Assembly: GCF_030013595.1 (NCBI RefSeq)
Contig: NZ_CP122768.1
DNA length: 64,000 nt
Source: Escherichia coli
Lineage (GTDB): Bacteria > Pseudomonadota > Gammaproteobacteria > Enterobacterales > Enterobacteriaceae
Reading direction: 5' to 3' (one strand)
This document shows, piece after piece, positions 3,321-64,000 of the stretch. Each line of letters opens with the position of its first letter. The stretch's first letter is position 1. Under the pieces are notes generated by a model, which had not been told where the DNA came from, did no database searches, and saw only the letters and a list, made by a program, of their open reading frames with translations. The position numbers and the translations under genes were made by a program.

Positions 3321-3894
3321 GAAACTTCTTATACAAAGTCGATACACCCACATCGTAGATAATCGCCACCTTCTGGCGAGGAGTTCCTGCTGCAATTAAT
3401 CTTCCGGCTTGTGCCCATTGTTCTGGTGTAAGTTTGGGACGACGTCCACCAATTCGTCCCTGTGCGCGAGCAGCTTCCAGTCCAGCTTTTGTTCGTTCAA
3501 CAATCAGTTCACGCTCCATTTCAGCCAGGGCACCCATCACATGAAAGAAAAAGCGTCCCATTGGTGTGCTGGTATCAATTGAATCCGTCAGACTATGAAA
3601 GTTGATGCCTCGTTCGCGCAACTCCTCCACCAACACGACAAGATGCCGCATACTACGCCCCAGCCGATCCAGCTTCCAGACAACCAGAGTGTCACCTGCC
3701 GATAATGTCCTGAGCAGTTTTTTCAGTCCCGGCCTTTCGGACTTTGTGCCGCTTATCTTGTCTTCAAAAATCAGCTCGCATCCTGCACAGTTCAGCGCAT
3801 TACGTTGTAGATCTGTGTTCTGGTCATTTGTTGATACGCGTACATAGCCAATAAGCATGGTAGATCCCCCTGACAAAAGCAGGAATGATGCCAT
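3304..3894 (-). CDS. pin: DNA invertase Pin (Gin/Hin/Cin serine recombinase family)
   Basis: 196-aa ORF begins MLIGYVRVSTNDQNTDLQRNAL, near-identical to recalled e14 Pin. Confidence 0.95.
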   Translation of the reverse strand: MASFLLLSGGSTMLIGYVRVSTNDQNTDLQRNALNCAGCELIFEDKISGTKSERPGLKKLLRTLSAGDTLVVWKLDRLGRSMRHLVVLVEELRERGINFHSLTDSIDTSTPMGRFFFHVMGALAEMERELIVERTKAGLEAARAQGRIGGRRPKLTPEQWAQAGRLIAAGTPRQKVAIIYDVGVSTLYKKFPVGDK

Positions 3895-3912
3895 TTGCTC
3901 GTTATTTCTGCA

Positions 3913-3938
3913 TTTTCATAAACGTTGGTTTGGGAGAA
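3913..3938. repeat. gix/pix-like inversion crossover site (pin-proximal)
   Basis: TTTTCATAAACGTTGGTTTGGGAGAA; reverse complement matches 5774..5799 at ~20/26 and fits the AAACC..GGTTT core of Gin/Hin sites. Confidence 0.6.
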
Positions 3939-4283
3939 GCGGCAAAGAGGAATGTGGGGACAGGAGAAAATCAGGTACCGGATATGAACAGCTTTGGTAA
4001 CTCATTGACCGCCAATGGATACCAGAAATTACCTGGGGGGATGATTATTCAATGGGGGAGTTTTTCTGTCTCACCAACCGGAGGAAGTGTTGGAACAGTT
4101 GATATAACATTACCTGTAGCTTTCCCTGCTGCTTGTCGTTCGGTAAACGCTCTTATTTCAACTAATGATCCTTCTGCCCGTTCTGTGGGCTTTGATATTG
4201 GAAGTACCAACAGAACTAAAATCAGATTTACTTACACTTCTGCTACAACAAATTCAATTTACTGGATGGCTGTGGGGTATTAA
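3939..4283 (+). CDS. alternative tail-fibre C-terminal segment (Sv'-like), silent in this orientation
   Basis: In-frame coding begins at the crossover site; followed by a tail-fibre-assembly gene; upstream part of track ORF 3885.. spans the recombination site. Confidence 0.6.
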   Translation, partial: AAKRNVGTGENQVPDMNSFGNSLTANGYQKLPGGMIIQWGSFSVSPTGGSVGTVDITLPVAFPAACRSVNALISTNDPSARSVGFDIGSTNRTKIRFTYTSATTNSIYWMAVGY

Positions 4284-4285
4284 CT

Positions 4286-4717
4286 ATGGAAAAGACATAT
4301 TATTTTAATCCCTCTGATTCGGGATTTTATATTTCACCAGATAGCCAAACCATTCCTGAGAACGCTACGAAAATAAACTTTACTATTTATTCTGAGTTCG
4401 CAGGAGTTGCATGGCCTGATGGTAAAATACTTGGTTCAGATAAAAATGGTTTTCCAGCATGGCAGGATGCGCCACCACTTACCAGCGAAGAATTAATCTC
4501 AATCGCTGAATCAAATAAACAGCGATTAGTTAATCAGGCCAACGAATACATGAACAGTAAACAATGGCCTGGTAAAGCGGCGATTGGTCGTCTGAAAGGT
4601 GAGGAACTGGCGCAATATAATTTGTGGCTGGATTATCTGGACGCACTGGAACTGGTCGATACTTCCAGTGCGCCAGATATTGAATGGCCTACTCCTCCGG
4701 CAGTTCAGGCCAGATGA
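4286..4717 (+). CDS. tail fibre assembly protein (alternative, U'-like)
   Basis: 143 aa; C-terminal [12 protein letters not shown] motif typical of Tfa proteins; inside invertible segment. Confidence 0.75.
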   Translation: MEKTYYFNPSDSGFYISPDSQTIPENATKINFTIYSEFAGVAWPDGKILGSDKNGFPAWQDAPPLTSEELISIAESNKQRLVNQANEYMNSKQWPGKAAIGRLKGEELAQYNLWLDYLDALELVDTSSAPDIEWPTPPAVQAR

Positions 4718-5294
4718 CATCCGGCGCGGTACTGGTATCTGTTGCCGTCACCGCGTCAATGTAATCCAGCACAGTGTTAAGTCGGGTGGTCTCTGCCTGC
4801 ATCAGCTTCCGCCCGGCCTGCAATTTCAGTTGAATCAGACTAATGGAAGCCATTGCAGTATCAATCAGTGACTGACGTTGTGCTTCTGCCGCGTCTACTG
4901 CGGCGCTATGCTGTGTCTCAGTATCCGTTACCCATTTCTCACCATCCCATTTATCGTATGGCGTTAACGGGGCGATAGTGGTTGTTTTTTCGGGGTAATC
5001 ACCCGGAGTTGTGATTTCTTTGGCGTCTCCCGTTTCGGTGTTATAGACGATTTCACCGCGATGGTCTGGTACATATTCCCATGAGTTAAAATCTGCAGAG
5101 CGGCAGATTGCATAACCAGCTTTGTAGGTGCCTGGAGCATCTAAACAGGAATATGCCGGAATGCCGACACCAACAGCAAGATATTCAGTTGAAGCTGAAA
5201 TATACTCCCGACTCATGACGTCAAAGTTATAAACAGTAATTTCTCCTGCCATAGTGGCAATTAATTCACTGTTTAATTCTGCGTTATTCATCAT
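4689..5294 (-). CDS. tail fibre assembly protein (expressed orientation, U-like)
   Basis: 201 aa; C-terminal [15 protein letters not shown]; directly downstream of tail fibre gene. Confidence 0.8.
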
Positions 5295-6076
5295 GCGGCC
5301 CTCACAATATAATTAAAGGCGATGTTACGTGGACGATTTTCATTTGCTGTTGGAACAACATTTGCCGCCGAGAAGTGAACATCTTGTCGGATTTTTCGGT
5401 CATTAGCGTATGTCATAGACACATTGATGTTATTCCGGACTGAGGTACCTCCGTAAAAAGCTCCACTCACACTTTGAACATCGACAATTGCATTAATTTC
5501 GCTGTTTACGCGCAACTGACCAAAACCGCCAGTAATGTTTCGAATAGCATCTCCTTGCGATGAAAGCAGAGTTCGCCCACTATCCACACCACGTTCATCA
5601 TCCCAGCCACGAATAAACTCACCGCGTAAATCAGGCAATTTATTTGTCGGGTAAGACTTTGCCAGTTCCGGGTATTCTTCAGCAGAAAAAGCCGCACCAT
5701 TGCATTTCAGCCAGCCTGTTGGTGGAGTGGCTGAAGGCCACGGAACAGGCACACCAACGGGTAATGCCGAACCTTCTCCCAAACCAAGGTTTTCGAGAGC
5801 TGTTTTCACCGTGCCATCCGATTTGATATCGCCAAACGGATTCTTGCGGCTTAACAGCAGCGCACGAAGCGCGGTAAGCAGCTGGTCATGCCGCCCCTTC
5901 TCCAGGCTGGCACCGGATGCCTCCACAACGCTGCAAAGCTCCTCCTGCAACATGTCAAAGTAGTCATCATCCAGATCGGTGGCAGGCGTGCCGGTCTGGG
6001 GGTTACCACGGGTAAAACCGTTCTTACCCGCGCCGAACTTATCCTTCTGCGCGGTTTTCGTGTCTATACGATGCAT
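5291..6076 (-). CDS. tail fibre protein (constant N-part fused to variable C-part)
   Basis: 261 aa; contains second crossover site about 92 codons in; position after Mu gp48-like gene. Confidence 0.8.
5774..5799. repeat. gix/pix-like inversion crossover site (inside tail fibre gene)
   Basis: TTCTCCCAAACCAAGGTTTTCGAGAG, inverted repeat of 3913..3938. Confidence 0.6.
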
Positions 6077-24246: not shown

Positions 24247-25575
24247 CTGATGAATCCCCTAATGATTTTGGTAAAAATCATTAAGTTAAGGTGGATACAC
24301 ATCTTGTCATATGATCAAATGGTTTCGCGAAAAATCAATAATCAGACAACAAGATGTGCGAACTCGATATTTTACACGACTCTCTTTACCAATTCTGCCC
24401 CGAATTACACTTAAAACGACTCAACAGCTTAACGTTGGCTTGCCACGCATTACTTGACTGTAAAACTCTCACTCTTACCGAACTTGGCCGTAACCTGCCA
24501 ACCAAAGCGAGAACAAAACATAACATCAAACGAATCGACCGATTGTTAGGTAATCGTCACCTCCACAAAGAGCGACTCGCTGTATACCGTTGGCATGCTA
24601 GCTTTATCTGTTCGGGCAATACGATGCCCATTGTACTTGTTGACTGGTCTGATATTCGTGAGCAAAAACGACTTATGGTATTGCGAGCTTCAGTCGCACT
24701 ACACGGTCGTTCTGTTACTCTTTATGAGAAAGCGTTCCCGCTTTCAGAGCAATGTTCAAAGAAAGCTCATGACCAATTTCTAGCCGACCTTGCGAGCATT
24801 CTACCGAGTAACACCACACCGCTCATTGTCAGTGATGCTGGCTTTAAAGTGCCATGGTATAAATCCGTTGAGAAGCTGGGTTGGTACTGGTTAAGTCGAG
24901 TAAGAGGAAAAGTACAATATGCAGACCTAGGAGCGGAAAACTGGAAACCTATCAGCAACTTACATGATATGTCATCTAGTCACTCAAAGACTTTAGGCTA
25001 TAAGAGGCTGACTAAAAGCAATCCAATCTCATGCCAAATTCTATTGTATAAATCTCGCTCTAAAGGCCGAAAAAATCAGCGCTCGACACGGACTCATTGT
25101 CACCACCCGTCACCTAAAATCTACTCAGCGTCGGCAAAGGAGCCATGGGTTCTAGCAACTAACTTACCTGTTGAAATTCGAACACCCAAACAACTTGTTA
25201 ATATCTATTCGAAGCGAATGCAGATTGAAGAAACCTTCCGAGACTTGAAAAGTCCTGCCTACGGACTAGGCCTACGCCATAGCCGAACGAGCAGCTCAGA
25301 GCGTTTTGATATCATGCTGCTAATCGCCCTGATGCTTCAACTAACATGTTGGCTTGCGGGCGTTCATGCTCAGAAACAAGGTTGGGACAAGCACTTCCAG
25401 GCTAACACAGTCAGAAATCGAAACGTACTCTCAACAGTTCGCTTAGGCATGGAAGTTTTGCGGCATTCTGGCTACACAATAACAAGGGAAGACTTACTCG
25501 TGGCTGCAACCCTACTAGCTCAAAATTTATTCACACATGGTTACGCTTTGGGGAAATTATGAGGGGATCTCTCAG
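24247..25575 (+). mobile_element. IS10, complete 1329-bp copy
   Basis: Outside end CTGATGAATCCCCTAATGATTTTGG at 24247, inside end CTGAGAGATCCCCTCA (reverse complement) at 25560-25575; flanks GGTTCAACA and TATTAAGCG differ, so no 9-bp duplication. Confidence 0.95.
24354..25562 (+). CDS. IS10 transposase
   Basis: 402 aa beginning MCELDILHDSLYQFCPELHLKRLNS, matches recalled IS10 transposase over its length. Confidence 0.97.
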   Translation: MCELDILHDSLYQFCPELHLKRLNSLTLACHALLDCKTLTLTELGRNLPTKARTKHNIKRIDRLLGNRHLHKERLAVYRWHASFICSGNTMPIVLVDWSDIREQKRLMVLRASVALHGRSVTLYEKAFPLSEQCSKKAHDQFLADLASILPSNTTPLIVSDAGFKVPWYKSVEKLGWYWLSRVRGKVQYADLGAENWKPISNLHDMSSSHSKTLGYKRLTKSNPISCQILLYKSRSKGRKNQRSTRTHCHHPSPKIYSASAKEPWVLATNLPVEIRTPKQLVNIYSKRMQIEETFRDLKSPAYGLGLRHSRTSSSERFDIMLLIALMLQLTCWLAGVHAQKQGWDKHFQANTVRNRNVLSTVRLGMEVLRHSGYTITREDLLVAATLLAQNLFTHGYALGKL

Positions 25576-58875: not shown

Positions 58876-60792
58876 TTATCCTCCACTCAGTGCAGCCGCG
58901 ATTTCTTCCAGACTCATCTCATCGTCGTCCTGCTCATCTCTTCTGGCACGGGCCAGTGCTTCAAGATCCAGCTGCCACCGCTGAACTGAAATACGCAGGG
59001 CAGCATAGGCATATACCAGGCAGTCGAGGGCTTCGTTGCGTCGCCCTTTTTTATCCCACAGCAGTTTCACCCTGCCATTAACCACCTTCTCCACCAGCTC
59101 TTCCGCCACGATCTGACGCGCCTCTTCTTCCGAAAAAATGTCGGGGTTATCAGGAAAACGGAAGGTGTACGGGGCGGCTTCACTGGCAGAGACCACTGGC
59201 AGGGCAAAACGGGCGTACAGCATTTCCTTGACGGTATCGGAGCCCACCTCACACAAAAACACACCACGCTGGTTGCGCTTTTTGGGCATGGTGATCACCG
59301 GCTTGCCGTACACCGATGCCCCTTTTATGGGAAGCACAAAAAAAGTGCCGTGTTTCCTTGAACGCTGATACACAATGTCCTGGTCGATACCACCGGTATC
59401 CCAGCAGACACGGGAAATGGAAATTTCAGTACCGTCAGCATGACGATATTTTTTCCGGATCACCGTATCAACACGTTTAAGGGTGTCCTCGTCTTCCGGT
59501 CGCCCCATGATAATTTGCTTATCAATCAGAAAGGCTTCTTCGCCGGGAGCCCAGCCCCAGACATAAATTTCATAGCGATCTTTCTGGGAGTCGATCCCGG
59601 CGGTCAGGTAAACCACCCGCAGGGGAACCTGCGCACCATAGTGGCAGACCTTTTCCAGTAACAACTCAAAACTCAGCTTTTCTGCCACAGCCTCTTCATA
59701 GGGCTCCCCGAGCGTGGTGTTAATAAACGTCTTGACGCCGTTCGGATCCTTCAGCGCATCCAGCCAGTCATAAACAATCTGTACCCAGGTGGTGAACGGA
59801 CTATACGCCGTCCAGATGTGGAAAGTGACGGAGCGCGGCGGTGGCATCTCCTCATCGCCGGCGCTGTAAAATGCCAGGCCGTCGCGCGTCCACATCCCGG
59901 TATTGTCACAAATCCAGCGCCCGTCGGTCTGGTCAAGTTCCGACTGCCGGATCACACAGCCATTATGTTCACACAGGTAATACACCGTTTCCGGTTTACC
60001 CTTCTCCCATTTCAGGCCAAATGGCGTCGCATCATCGCCAAACTTCAGATACTGGGCCTCCCCGCAATGAGGGCAAGGGACATAAAACCGCATGAAATGC
60101 GCTGATTCATTTGCGGCTTTCTCAATCTGGCAGGAGCCTTTAATTTTTGGCGTTGAGCCACGTATGGATTTAGGCCATACCGAGCCTTCGATACGCTTAT
60201 CGCCAAGCAGCGTCGGCGAACCTTCTTTTTCCACATCCGGTTCAAACGAGGAGAGTTCGTCATAGCAGACCACATCCACAGATTTTTCACGGTAGTTTTT
60301 AGCAGCGGCGCCGCCAAGGCACCAGAAACCCACACCGGAGGAAAAACGCTTCAGGGTGAGTGTATTATCGCGGTGCTTTCTTCCGAACCATGGAGCCAGC
60401 TCCAGCAATGCAGGAACATCCCTGATCGTTGGCTCAACATGAGATTTCATGAAATCTTCTGCAGCAGAATCTGTTGGCTGAAAAAGCAGACTGTTACGGG
60501 ATTTATGCTCAATAAAATAAGCCTCCACCCCCAACAGCATTTTGGTGTAACCAACGCGCGCCGATTTAATCAGATTAACGGTGCGGATCCGGTCATTTCC
60601 CATGCTGTTCATAATGGCAACCTGAAACGGCAGGGTTTCCCATTGTCCGGGAGTGTATGAAGATTCTTTCGGCAGATAATAATGTTGATCAGCCCACTGA
60701 ACCGTCGTCAGTGGAACCGGAATATTGAGAGATAAAAGCCCTGTAGCTATCGCACCGGCTGCATTAGCTGCCTTCTGTGCGTCTGAAATCAT
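58876..60792 (-). CDS. terminase large subunit (lambda gpA family)
   Basis: Track ORF 652 aa; internal Met at 60792 reduces overlap with small subunit; VEWADANYYLPKES-type motif. Confidence 0.92.
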
Positions 60793-61312
60793 CAATCCAC
60801 CTGCCCACGTTTTCACCGGCTTTAGCTGCAACATTGGAGGCTTTCGCGATTTCAGTTTTCACCACATCAAGGTGTGACGGTGAAATATCCGGATATTTAC
60901 GCTGTAATGTCAGCGGCACACGTACAAGTATCCCCGAAATCTCCTGTGCCACACGTTGCAGAATGAAGGTAAACAATTCTGTTTCCAGCACCAGCCCTTC
61001 TTCACGGGCATTTTTCAGCTCCTGTGCGTCAGCCTGTGCTTTGGTTAACCGGTAGCGTTCATAGTCAATGGTGCCGGGTTGTAAATCTGATTCTGCAGTC
61101 GCACGCAAATCTTCCAGTTCTTTGCGGAGCTTTTCGTTTTCGATATCTTTTTCCCGCTGCGCATACCACTCAATGGCTTCTGCAGTATTGAACATGGCTT
61201 CGATACCTTTGCCTCCCCCCGACAAAACTCTCAGCCCCTGACTTTGCCAGCCAGTGATTGTTCTGACATCGCACTCAAAAATTTCCGCCAGTTTCTTTTT
61301 GTTAACCTTCAC
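60764..61312 (-). CDS. terminase small subunit (lambda Nu1 family)
   Basis: 182 aa; [26 protein letters not shown] vs lambda Nu1 MEVNKKQLADIFGASIRTIQNWQEQG, similarity throughout. Confidence 0.9.
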
Positions 61313-61319
61313 GGCACAT

Positions 61320-61520
61320 ATTCCTCACAAAAAGAAGAAAGGATCTCAAAACGCTTTTTTCAGCGAAAAATCACCGCTGCCAGATCCTTTCTTTTTTTAA
61401 GAAAACTCTATTAAACAACAGGTTAGCCAGAAGAAGAACGGATCTGCTTTTTCCCTGAAAATTTTCATAAATAGCGCGTTTTTGCGCGTCCCCAGACCCT
61501 CGGTGTTTCAGGTTCCAGAA
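61320..61520 (-). other. cos region (cosB-like Nu1-binding and IHF elements; cosN nearby)
   Basis: Minus strand has CGCTATTTATGAAAATTTTC and CCGTTCTTCTTC, both present in lambda cos; the segment corresponding to lambda cosN differs. Confidence 0.55.
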
Positions 61521-61612
61521 AGGACCCGTTGAAATGGGAGTAATTATCATTTACACGCTCTAACACCTGCATTATCGCAACCCCTCACACAGAAGGGCTG
61601 CTGTAATGCCTG

Positions 61613-62011
61613 TTACTCACGAATCAGGCGAGCACTCTTACCATTCATTTCAATACGCGAATACTGCGGTTTACCATCAATGATGTCTGTCATCACGAAC
61701 ATCTCACCCGGCTGCAGTTCAACTACTGCGCCTTCCGGCAATTTCATGCAGGCAAATACCGGACAACCAGGATGACGATCATCTTCTGTTGCTTCCAGCA
61801 TTGACTCACCAAACCACTCCGTCGTGGCGCGACCATCAGCTGCTTTGTAGTGGATCAAGTACTGGTTTTCGCCATCCGCATACTGCGCGCGGGCTTTAAC
61901 CTCACCCCATTCATCACTGATGCGCATCTCCACCAGTTGAGACAACTCAAACTTAAACGGAGCAGCATCAGCACCAATTACAATCGGTTTGCTTTCTGTT
62001 TTTTCCATCAT
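61613..62011 (-). CDS. hypothetical protein between lysis cassette and cos
   Basis: 132-aa ORF, no recognisable motifs. Confidence 0.4.
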   Translation of the reverse strand: MMEKTESKPIVIGADAAPFKFELSQLVEMRISDEWGEVKARAQYADGENQYLIHYKAADGRATTEWFGESMLEATEDDRHPGCPVFACMKLPEGAVVELQPGEMFVMTDIIDGKPQYSRIEMNGKSARLIRE

Positions 62012-62182
62012 CGTCTCCTGATATCAAAGCCCGTCGCCGCACCGGGCACTGATCAACATTTGAGTATTCGCGGCGACAGAAAGAATTTATTTTATTGAGT
62101 AGCCACAAACACAGAATTTCATGCTTTCCGGACGCTGGCGCACTCTTCATTTTTCAGCAAAATATTCTGCTCTTACAGGCGA

Positions 62183-62359
62183 TCAGTTCTGCAGACACTG
62201 CCGAACACCGTCGACAATTTCACAGACCAGAGAAGCGGTATCGAAAAGCTGGCGCGCTTTATCCAGGCTGACGCATCCCACCAATAAAAAAGGCACCAGT
62301 ATCGCTACCCATTTCGCCGCCGTTCGCGGCATTCTGTGTGTCCAGTGTTTTCGCGTCAT
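62183..62359 (-). CDS. candidate small lipoprotein (58 aa)
   Basis: Hand-translated MTRKHWTHRMPRTAAKWVAILVPFLLVGC...; basic n-region, hydrophobic core, lipobox LVGC; mature 30 aa with 3 Cys; below track cutoff. Confidence 0.35.
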   Translation of the reverse strand: MTRKHWTHRMPRTAAKWVAILVPFLLVGCVSLDKARQLFDTASLVCEIVDGVRQCLQN

Positions 62360-62360
62360 A

Positions 62361-62474
62361 TCACCACCAACGCACAGCCCAAATCAGAACAGCGACCGCC
62401 ACAAGGCGAATTGCAAAGGCCGCAGCCCTTGTCAAATCAAGGCTCGCGGGAGTTTCCACTTCAATACCTTTCAT
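62361..62474 (-). CDS. candidate 37-aa single-pass membrane peptide overlapping the lipoprotein start
   Basis: MKGIEVETPASLDLTRAAAFAIRLVAVAVLIWAVRWW; GAGG 9 nt upstream of ATG; stop sits 1 nt before lipoprotein ATG. Confidence 0.3.
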   Translation of the reverse strand: MKGIEVETPASLDLTRAAAFAIRLVAVAVLIWAVRWW

Positions 62475-62560
62475 AATGGACAACCTCAAAAAGAATCTTT
62501 TATACTTTCCCACGAGGATTTTCTCCGTACTCACTACTCACAATTTCCTCTCTGACGTGA

Positions 62561-62607
62561 AAACTCAAAACCCCGGACTGTTCCAGCAGCCGGGGTTTTG
62601 TTTTTTT
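62561..62607. terminator. strong bidirectional rho-independent terminator
   Basis: CCCCGG..CCGGGG stem flanked by AAACTCAAAA upstream and TTTTGTTTTTTT downstream. Confidence 0.7.
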
Positions 62608-62887
62608 ATTTACTGCCCTGGGTGCGGCATCTGGCTATTTCACCCCTGGCTTTACTGTCACCGCGACAGATACAACGCACCGTGTCTCCGGTCAACGTGG
62701 TAATGTAAGCCTCATCCTCTTTTTCTACCGGAATACATGGAATATCCCCGCCCCGGCAATACTCAATTTTTGCTGCAAGATGAGTGTCACGCGGATAGAA
62801 CTCCAGACGATACATATCTCCCAGGACATGCACTTCCTCAACCTGGCGACCATCCTCAGTTACGGTAATTTTTTTCAGTGCGTACAT
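62606..62887 (-). CDS. small Cys-rich protein of unknown function (93 aa)
   Basis: ATG at 62885-62887 with GGAGG 5 nt upstream; C-terminus has CxxxxC...CxC...C; flanked by terminators. Confidence 0.5.
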   Translation of the reverse strand: MYALKKITVTEDGRQVEEVHVLGDMYRLEFYPRDTHLAAKIEYCRGGDIPCIPVEKEDEAYITTLTGDTVRCICRGDSKARGEIARCRTQGSK

Positions 62888-62915
62888 ACGTACCTCCGTT
62901 CTTTCGTTTTTTGAG

Positions 62916-62942
62916 CAATAAAAAAGCCGCTCATGGCGGCCC
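62916..62942 (-). terminator. rho-independent terminator after endolysin gene
   Basis: GCCGC-loop-GCGGC hairpin followed on minus strand by six U. Confidence 0.55.
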
Positions 62943-62957
62943 TGTATGTTTTGCAAG

Positions 62958-63341
62958 CTATCGCTTCAATTGAAAATGAGGCCCGTCTTTCAGTGTTTTC
63001 CAGTCCCCGCCCCATTCGATGGCAGTTCCCAGCTCTGCGGCAGCCTGCTTAAATGCCTGCGCGATTTTCTCGTACAGAGGCCAGTCCCATGACACCTGGC
63101 TGCCAACCCAGGCCACAACATCCACCGCATCACCGGTCAGGTGGCGGCTGTTCATGGTCTGGCTCTTACCTTCTGCAACCAGCTGTTTCTGGCGTTCTTT
63201 CGTGCGCAGGCCCTCCGTAATACCGAAATCAACCTCCGACAGTTCAAGGGCGCGGCGAACTACAGCAACCAGCTGTGGTTTGACGCCTTCCAGATTTTTC
63301 TCGCTCCGGCGGCTGAATCTGAATTTACCCGACATATTCAC
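62958..63341 (-). CDS. endolysin, peptidase M15 family
   Basis: 127 aa with zinc-binding pattern SRHLTGDAVD ... DGPHFQL. Confidence 0.8.
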   Translation of the reverse strand: MNMSGKFRFSRRSEKNLEGVKPQLVAVVRRALELSEVDFGITEGLRTKERQKQLVAEGKSQTMNSRHLTGDAVDVVAWVGSQVSWDWPLYEKIAQAFKQAAAELGTAIEWGGDWKTLKDGPHFQLKR

Positions 63342-63574
63342 CTCAACAATGGAAAGATTCTTGTGACGTTCCCGCGTGCGCGTATCACCAGCACGCAGAA
63401 CAGCAGATTAAAAAACACATCCAGCCAGCCCGTTGCTAACGGGCGACCACACAGATAGCTGAGAGGCGAAAAGGCATACAGCAGCGTCAGCAGCCAGGCC
63501 AGCCATGACATCAGCGGTTTATGCCTGGAATCGCGACGACGATAAAAAAGAGCGTCAGCACGATAACCGTGCAT
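63338..63574 (-). CDS. small membrane protein of lysis cassette (possible holin/antiholin)
   Basis: 78-aa track ORF with hydrophobic segments; 4-nt overlap with endolysin start. Confidence 0.4.
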   Translation of the reverse strand: MHGYRADALFYRRRDSRHKPLMSWLAWLLTLLYAFSPLSYLCGRPLATGWLDVFFNLLFCVLVIRARGNVTRIFPLLR

Positions 63575-63601
63575 AACGCCACATTCAGTAATCCGGGAAG
63601 G

Positions 63602-63994
63602 TTACTTAACATTACCGCCTCCTCCGCCTCGCAGGCGGGAGAACCGTCCTGACACCAGCGATGCGATATCCTGCTGGTGGATGAACGACAGAATCTTCAC
63701 CGACACCACAGACACCAGCACTGCACACAGCGCGTCGACAGATTTACTGTGAAGCCCCAGTTTTTCGACCAGATAAGACGCCATCACATCCGCCCCCAGT
63801 ACGCCGATAATAAACGACACCAGAAAATGCGCCGCCACCCGCCAGACAGAAAGCGCCTGCGGCATCGTTGCCACAAACAACGCCCCCGCGAACGCACCAA
63901 ACACAATCCCGAAATCCGTTCCGGTGAACAGCCCGAATACCGTCGCCCCTCCGAGCGCAGCCGCCGTGCCGGAACCGGATAAGGGTTCAGACAT
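63602..63994 (-). CDS. putative holin-like multi-TM membrane protein
   Basis: 130 aa, Gly/Ala-rich hydrophobic helices; heads the lysis cassette. Confidence 0.45.
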   Translation of the reverse strand: MSEPLSGSGTAAALGGATVFGLFTGTDFGIVFGAFAGALFVATMPQALSVWRVAAHFLVSFIIGVLGADVMASYLVEKLGLHSKSVDALCAVLVSVVSVKILSFIHQQDIASLVSGRFSRLRGGGGGNVK

Positions 63995-64000
63995 ACTTTT

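Follow-up and report, generated by a model that had tools for sequence, protein, structure and literature searches.

The gene at positions 61613 to 62011 of the window, by which we mean the whole stretch of 64,000 nucleotides of Escherichia coli DNA that was analyzed, is a real gene under purifying selection, and its 132-aa product does not belong to the conserved structural or lysis proteins. By profile comparison and structure modeling, the core of this protein is a distant YccV/HspQ-like domain that lies below the reach of the Pfam model, and the gene is probably a late-expressed accessory gene. We hold this descriptive account, which stands apart from any protease-docking mechanism, to be very likely correct. 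The best explanation that we can offer for the function, a late accessory gene whose HspQ-like barrel would dock onto a host protease, is a tentative one that may well be wrong. If the mechanism is wrong, what remains is a well-delimited, conserved accessory gene of a kind that is ordinary for prophages.

The gene, its product, and its expression signals

The first-pass annotation had placed a gene of this length between the lysis cassette and cos without giving a strand. An ATG-initiated open reading frame (ORF) is indeed found there, on the minus strand, with holin and endolysin genes upstream and a cos site that aligns with that of lambda, followed by the Nu1 gene, downstream. In the order of the minus strand, the features are as follows.

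63602-63994, minus strand: holin (Pfam Phage_holin_8)
Between holin and endolysin, minus strand: second small membrane ORF
62958-63341, minus strand: endolysin (Pfam Peptidase_M15_4)
62923-62943, minus strand: terminator-like hairpin just 3' of the endolysin gene
Likely true start at Met24, ~62887, minus strand: ORF116 (phrog_33497)
62361-62534, minus strand: small ORF with a C-terminal transmembrane (TM) segment (phrog_4493/1115)
62183..62359, minus strand: 58-aa lipoprotein-like ORF (phrog_7528)
62012..62182, minus strand: 171-bp spacer from the lipoprotein gene to the 132-aa gene
62015-62019, minus strand: Shine-Dalgarno sequence AGGAG, read directly from the sequence
61613..62011, minus strand: 132-aa ORF, ATG initiated, from the ORF listing
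61742..61960, minus strand: conserved core (residues ~18-90), a predicted six-stranded SH3-like barrel and then an HPGCP motif
61619..61720, minus strand: optional C-terminal module (residues ~98-131)
61552..61612, minus strand: 3' flank conserved with the 132-aa gene in all E. coli relatives
61440..61529, minus strand: lambda-type cos, by alignment to lambda across the cohesive ends
60764..61312, minus strand: Nu1 small terminase subunit, first gene of the packaging module (Phage_Nu1, E 1e-84)

The start region reads ...AGGAGACG ATG ATG GAA..., with two adjacent ATGs at 62011 and 62008, and the AGGAG is separated by 3 nt from the first of these and by 6 nt from the other. The better spacing of the second ATG makes a 131-aa product likelier than one of 132 aa, and the RefSeq annotation in E. 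coli UMNF18, whose DNA is 99.9% identical to window positions 61313-62400, is the 131-aa form (WP_000415836.1). The protein has 106 homologues, all from Enterobacterales and all annotated as "hypothetical." In 47 unique coding sequences drawn from 75 loci, pN/pS was 0.21 for residues 1 to 97, which indicates purifying selection, and 0.41 for the C-terminal extension. The pN/pS values and the homologues together rule out a spurious ORF.

With a pI of 4.75 and a net charge of -9, the protein is acidic; it has no TM segment or signal peptide, with a maximum 19-residue hydropathy of 0.9, and is therefore expected to be soluble and cytoplasmic rather than a holin, a spanin, or a secreted factor. 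The TM segment, signal or lipobox, and enzymatic domain of canonical lysis proteins are all absent from it, which rules out an identity as a spanin or lysis enzyme. That the protein carries no recognizable motif, as had been noted from the sequence, holds for Pfam, NCBIfam, and PADLOC scans, which gave no match, and for searches of PDB sequences, in which both the single sequence and the family profile/HMM gave chance matches only (E>0.4). The sole full-family matches were phrog_1935 (E 1.5e-70) and phrog_8618 (E 5.9e-25), both annotated as being of unknown function. All 48 diverse relatives matched both of these families, and none of the 48 had any Pfam domain over the barrel. Homology to a conserved late or structural protein, which the first-pass annotation had set against its own proposal, was not found by the family searches.

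A terminator-like hairpin with an 8-bp stem (5 GC pairs), followed by TTTTATTG, lies after the endolysin stop codon and before ORF116, so that the four small downstream genes, including the 132-aa gene, would need antiterminated late transcription. A consensus scan, which weak or non-sigma-70 promoters may escape, found no sigma-70 promoter-like site on the minus strand in 61200-64000, and no terminator-like site flanks the 132-aa gene on that strand by the same kind of scan. The RNA fold of the 171-bp spacer is unexceptional (z -1.07). The gene and its neighbors all lie on the minus strand, co-oriented with the late genes, and with neither a promoter nor a terminator of its own, Q-dependent read-through from the late promoter is the simplest expectation, from which we infer late expression.

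The lysis cassette itself is without a canonical Rz/Rz1-type spanin. A pair consisting of the TM ORF and the lipoprotein-like ORF follows the M15 endolysin (62183-62534); the latter has the lipobox LLVGC and a 30-aa mature part with 3 Cys residues. Kept in ~75 of 80 related loci, this pair has too little length to cross the periplasm; it could be a noncanonical component for outer membrane disruption, or something else.

Likeness of the core to HspQ and YccV

An alignment of 33 homologues showed conservation of core residues ~18 to 97 and a variable C terminus. At the DNA level, a clean in-frame indel of 102 nt, with homologous sequence to either side of it, distinguishes the 98-aa form from that of 131 aa and makes the C-terminal ~34 residues an optional module. 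Three beta strands are predicted in this module (residues ~98 to 131) with low confidence, and the last 27 residues of the protein match a separate 42-aa family, phrog_8025. The family profile found 670 proteins at E<=1e-3 among 1.84 billion representatives, the count of ~670 being one of representative clusters at 50% identity, and most of these are 60 to 90 aa long and match the barrel only. The barrel is found by itself (~60 aa), in duplicate, or joined to C-terminal modules that vary, a modularity that is typical of adaptors, and from these alignments it appears to behave as a portable N-terminal domain. Tandem double barrels or C-terminal fusions were seen in relatives P0044, P0148, P0156, P0170, and P0177, and a Cys-rich C-terminal segment (C..C ... 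C.HP..PV ... C) in some relatives looks like a metal-binding module.

Two proteins annotated as L33 are true members of the family. L33 of phiP27 (NP_543085.1) is 97% identical over residues 1 to 97 and is encoded in the same position after the lysis genes; it is a short form that lacks the 34-residue module, and its annotation begins at a start codon farther upstream. L33 of Escherichia phage ESSI2_ev040 is a minimal barrel of 65 aa, and its gene lies between that of the small terminase (TerS) and the head-tail adaptor/head completion gene. Our literature search on phiP27 L33 and on phage YccV/HspQ-like proteins gave nothing relevant, and we found no published characterization of a phage-borne HspQ/YccV-type barrel.

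The gene had been described as one of low information. Profile search and structure prediction give more, namely a distant HspQ/YccV-like barrel. In the full-length AlphaFold2 model, residues 20 to 85 are confident and the C-terminal part is poor, and a domain-only model built on 60 diverse sequences reached a pLDDT of 91.9 and a pTM of 0.77. YccV-like domains are SH3-like barrels of six strands in which a short 3-10 helix separates beta4 from beta5 (PMC7647994), and the domain model has this topology as predicted, with six strands and, between the fourth and the fifth, a short helix. In a Foldseek search, this model gave HspQ/YccV (PDB 5ycq) as the sole match at E<=1e-3 (E 9.5e-4, TM 0.65/0.71), and the next match was ~50-fold weaker (E 0.046).

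The same likeness was found by comparison of the family profile with an alignment of HspQ orthologues in hhalign (Prob 89.8, E 1.8e-6, 69 columns), and a second profile comparison reproduced it (Prob 89.1, E 2.3e-6, 69 to 70 columns). As controls, 60 column-shuffled HspQ profiles gave a Prob of at most 6.4 and a best E of 5.7e-3, and the reversed profile gave a Prob of 0.1. The F-x-x-x-Q-x-V start, a central Gly and Tyr, E-x-x-L, and a post-barrel HP-x-x-P are in register in the hhalign alignment. The Pfam model PF08755 (YccV-like), which all true HspQ orthologues carry, did not match the 132-aa protein (E<=0.1) or any of the 48 diverse relatives (E<=0.01).

HspQ and the 132-aa protein are both small, cytoplasmic, and acidic (pI 4.53 versus 4.75) and share the F..(L/I).Q.V start, the central aromatic residue, E..L, and HP..P after the barrel, at an identity of 18 to 23%. 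The phage protein lacks the 15-residue insertion that HspQ has between strands 2 and 3 as well as the C-terminal tail that bears K96, the alignment stopping at HspQ residue 87-88. Unlike HspQ, it continues beyond the barrel with unrelated sequence and the optional beta-strand module, and whereas HspQ is encoded by a chromosomal heat shock gene, the 132-aa protein is phage encoded in a late operon.

Possible partners of the barrel

The proteins that carry characterized YccV-like domains point to proteases as possible partners. HspQ is both a substrate and an activator of Lon, and its K96-acetylated form evades Lon, builds up, and inhibits ClpS; the binding of HspQ to ClpS does not depend on K96 status (PMC6719616). 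Human PDIP38/POLDIP2 docks on the zinc-binding domain of CLPX, plant ClpF is a partner of ClpS1, and YccV-like proteins recurrently regulate proteolytic machines according to the authors of PMC7647994. In PDIP38/POLDIP2 and ClpF, the YccV-like barrel is a docking module combined with variable second modules, as in the phage family, but both are eukaryotic organellar multidomain proteins, and we liken them to the phage family by description.

The mechanism that we propose rests on these findings on HspQ, PDIP38, ClpF, and YccV-like proteins. The barrel would dock onto a host AAA+ protease or adaptor (Lon or ClpS), as characterized YccV-like domains do, and the docking would alter which proteins are degraded late in infection. 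Since the K96 tail is missing, the 132-aa protein would more plausibly act as a nondegraded competitor or inhibitor than as a Lon activator. Docking by this protein, argued here by analogy, is in our view possible but doubtful. The PF08755 and PDB sequence searches were without a match to the family, the tail that governs the interaction of HspQ with Lon is absent, and late expression would be an unusual time for host takeover. The contexts of distant relatives are also varied, and a shared function tied to lysis or packaging is not evident from them.

Lambda CIII is a small phage protein that acts on FtsH. Few phage proteins are known to manipulate host AAA+ proteases (T4 PinA, T7 Gp4.5, and lambda CIII), and none of them is YccV-like. 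These bind the protease and alter its activity, which is the functional class proposed for the 132-aa protein; the likeness that we draw is one of function, and they are expressed early or in the lysis-lysogeny decision, unlike the 132-aa gene in its late operon. T4 PinA and T7 Gp4.5 are small proteins that act on Lon (PMC10286901).

A bolder version, which we find unlikely, is that the family consists of widespread phage mimics of HspQ, spanning lambdoid, HK97-like, and P2-like phages, that dock on Lon or ClpS without being degraded and so reprogram proteolysis late in infection. Phage proteins could then be stabilized, or protease-triggered toxin-antitoxin or abortive-infection responses blocked; the variable C-terminal modules would be target selectors, and the 132-aa protein would be the founding example. 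Should docking on Lon or ClpS prove true of the family, the known phage modulators of proteases would gain a widespread class, two PHROG families would be given a function, and natural probes of how the YccV/HspQ barrel engages proteases would become available.

The main alternative is that a generic small barrel binds an unrelated partner, such as an anti-defense or host takeover target or nucleic acid, and that the likeness to HspQ reflects shared ancestry or fold only and not protease function. We regard this as a serious possibility, though short of an even chance. SH3, Tudor, and KOW folds bind many types of ligand, the PHROG families are of unknown function, and a Foldseek search of BFVD with the 132-aa protein returned only uncharacterized small phage barrels (E>=3e-3). 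The diverse contexts of the relatives, which include early regions among tiny ORFs and a P4-like island, also agree with it. Against it, three methods agree on HspQ specifically as the best match, the HP..P motif that follows the barrel is kept in register with HspQ, and neither PADLOC nor any other family match points to a different function. The remaining alternatives, a role in lysis timing, packaging, or lysogenic conversion, are less likely than an unrelated partner, and they are best considered together with the genomic context.

Module linkage and the cargo slot upstream of cos

Neighboring ORFs were clustered for 80 IMG/VR loci, which are close E. coli relatives, and for the other loci fetched. 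In ~75 of the 80 E. coli loci, the 132-aa gene travels with the lysis module; its upstream neighbor is almost always the gene for a lipoprotein of 58 to 60 aa, with a spacer of 171 bp in 59 loci, and the downstream packaging module varies, with Nu1/cos, a ParB-like methylase, a DUF1441-type small terminase, HNH plus Terminase_4 (phiP27), and others. Homology among the relatives stops ~50 to 60 nt past the stop codon of the gene, and this break at ~61551 marks the right-hand boundary of the lysis module. With a constant neighbor upstream and a variable one downstream, the 132-aa gene is best seen as the terminal gene of a mobile lysis module. More broadly, the relatives have no consistent functional neighbor, which fits an autonomous accessory function.

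That the gene closes the lysis module in E. coli lambdoid prophages and has the lipoprotein gene as its constant upstream neighbor would suit a cytoplasmic factor for lysis timing, or a lysis accessory factor, that acts on the holin, the endolysin, or the outer membrane disruption step. So would the location of relatives directly after the spanin genes in an Enterobacter P2-like prophage, where the start codon overlaps the spanin stop codon, after Rz in Salmonella, and after LysC in Edwardsiella. We nevertheless think such a role improbable, as the holins and endolysins associated with the relatives are of unrelated types (three for the endolysins: M15, lysozyme, and GH108), the protein is without a membrane or secretion signal, the relatives in Yersinia and ESSI2 Peduoviridae lie far from the lysis genes, with TerS on one side and the head completion gene on the other, and distant relatives lie in early regions. 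A specific link to the M15 endolysin was rejected, since relatives adjoin lysozyme and GH108 endolysins.

One relative, of 91 aa (loci L105/L106, 4001-4276), stands alone between intergenic regions of ~1.1 kb and 0.4 kb. Its island holds a P4 Psu-like gene, GerE and AraC regulators, and an autotransporter, a setting unlike the late-operon placement of the 132-aa gene.

On the other side of the gene, the stop codon is ~80 bp from cosQ. A cosQ-like ACGGGTCCTTTCTGG is found at 61515-61529, the inferred position of cosN is ~61488-61499 by alignment to lambda, and the conserved blocks CGCTATTTATGAAAATTTTC and CCGTTCTTCTTC on the cosB side align with lambda. The cosQ and cosB-side blocks are nearly identical to those of lambda, and the cosN-aligned sequence is GGGTCTGGGGAC versus GGGCGGCGACCT in lambda, so the cohesive-end sequence may differ from that of lambda. 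Nu1, gpA, W, and the portal gene follow downstream of cos.

This proximity to cos could suggest a helper in packaging or head assembly, for instance, one that binds DNA or terminase. The relatives beside the small terminase gene in Edwardsiella and Peduoviridae and the Pfam name of the YccV family, "hemimethylated DNA-binding," which echoes the original description of YccV, agree with such a role. We judge it somewhat more improbable still than a lysis factor. The E. coli gene recombines with the lysis module, and Nu1, DUF1441-type TerS, HNH plus Terminase_4, and the ParB-like methylase are all found downstream of it, a variation for which we rejected a link of the gene to the packaging module. 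The protein is strongly acidic, and neither lambda nor the related prophage SerU-LTIIb, whose cos is the same, carries the gene.

SerU-LTIIb (KU052038.1) shares both flanks with the window, at 96% identity on the Nu1/cos side (60894-61551) and 85% on the holin side (63357-64000). The stretch enclosed by the flanks holds a different endolysin and, just upstream of cos, where the window has its small ORFs and the 132-aa gene, the LT-IIb enterotoxin genes eltIIbA/B, so that a slot can be delimited as 3641-5753 in SerU-LTIIb versus 61552-63356 in the window, with breakpoints at 61551 and 63357. Lambda has bor, p78, and p79 in the equivalent interval and no homologue of the 132-aa gene. The absence of the gene from lambda and SerU-LTIIb indicates that it is dispensable and accessory, and the idea that the position upstream of cos is one for accessory genes is borne out by the LT-IIb genes of one phage and bor of the other. 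The interval upstream of cos in this prophage lineage is thus a real cargo slot, knowledge of which helps to annotate prophages of enterotoxigenic and Shiga toxin-producing E. coli (ETEC and STEC).

Of the suggestion that the gene is a cargo candidate, the variable slot and the accessory nature survive, but a classical moron or lysogenic-conversion unit does not. A moron or bor-like cassette is flanked by a promoter and a terminator of its own, through which it can be expressed from the repressed prophage. The 132-aa gene showed neither in the consensus scan, points the same way as the late genes, and is passed on in E. coli with the lysis module as its final gene; what it has in common with such cassettes is the variable slot. 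By analogy, it may resemble late-expressed cargo (Stx, LT-II) more than bor. Although the slot holds bor in lambda and the LT-IIb genes in SerU-LTIIb, expression from the prophage as lysogenic-conversion cargo on the bor model is very improbable given the missing promoter-like and terminator-like sites, the late-operon orientation, the lack of an export signal, and a G+C content that is not distinct from that of the neighboring genes.

In the UMNF18 prophage (locus 10643-12056), the endolysin is separated from the small ORFs by two inserted genes, one for a DUF1441 protein and one, on the opposite strand, for an LPS core heptose(II)-phosphate phosphatase (Ais-like), a further insertion of cargo into this module; the portal gene of this locus is annotated as frameshifted. 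No tRNAs were found, and in an Rfam search over the whole window, the only match, far from the 132-aa gene, was the RNA-OUT of IS10 (98.8 bits), within 24292-25562 and overlapping the start of a 402-aa ORF. This match indicates a copy of IS10 between the two phage-like regions of the window.
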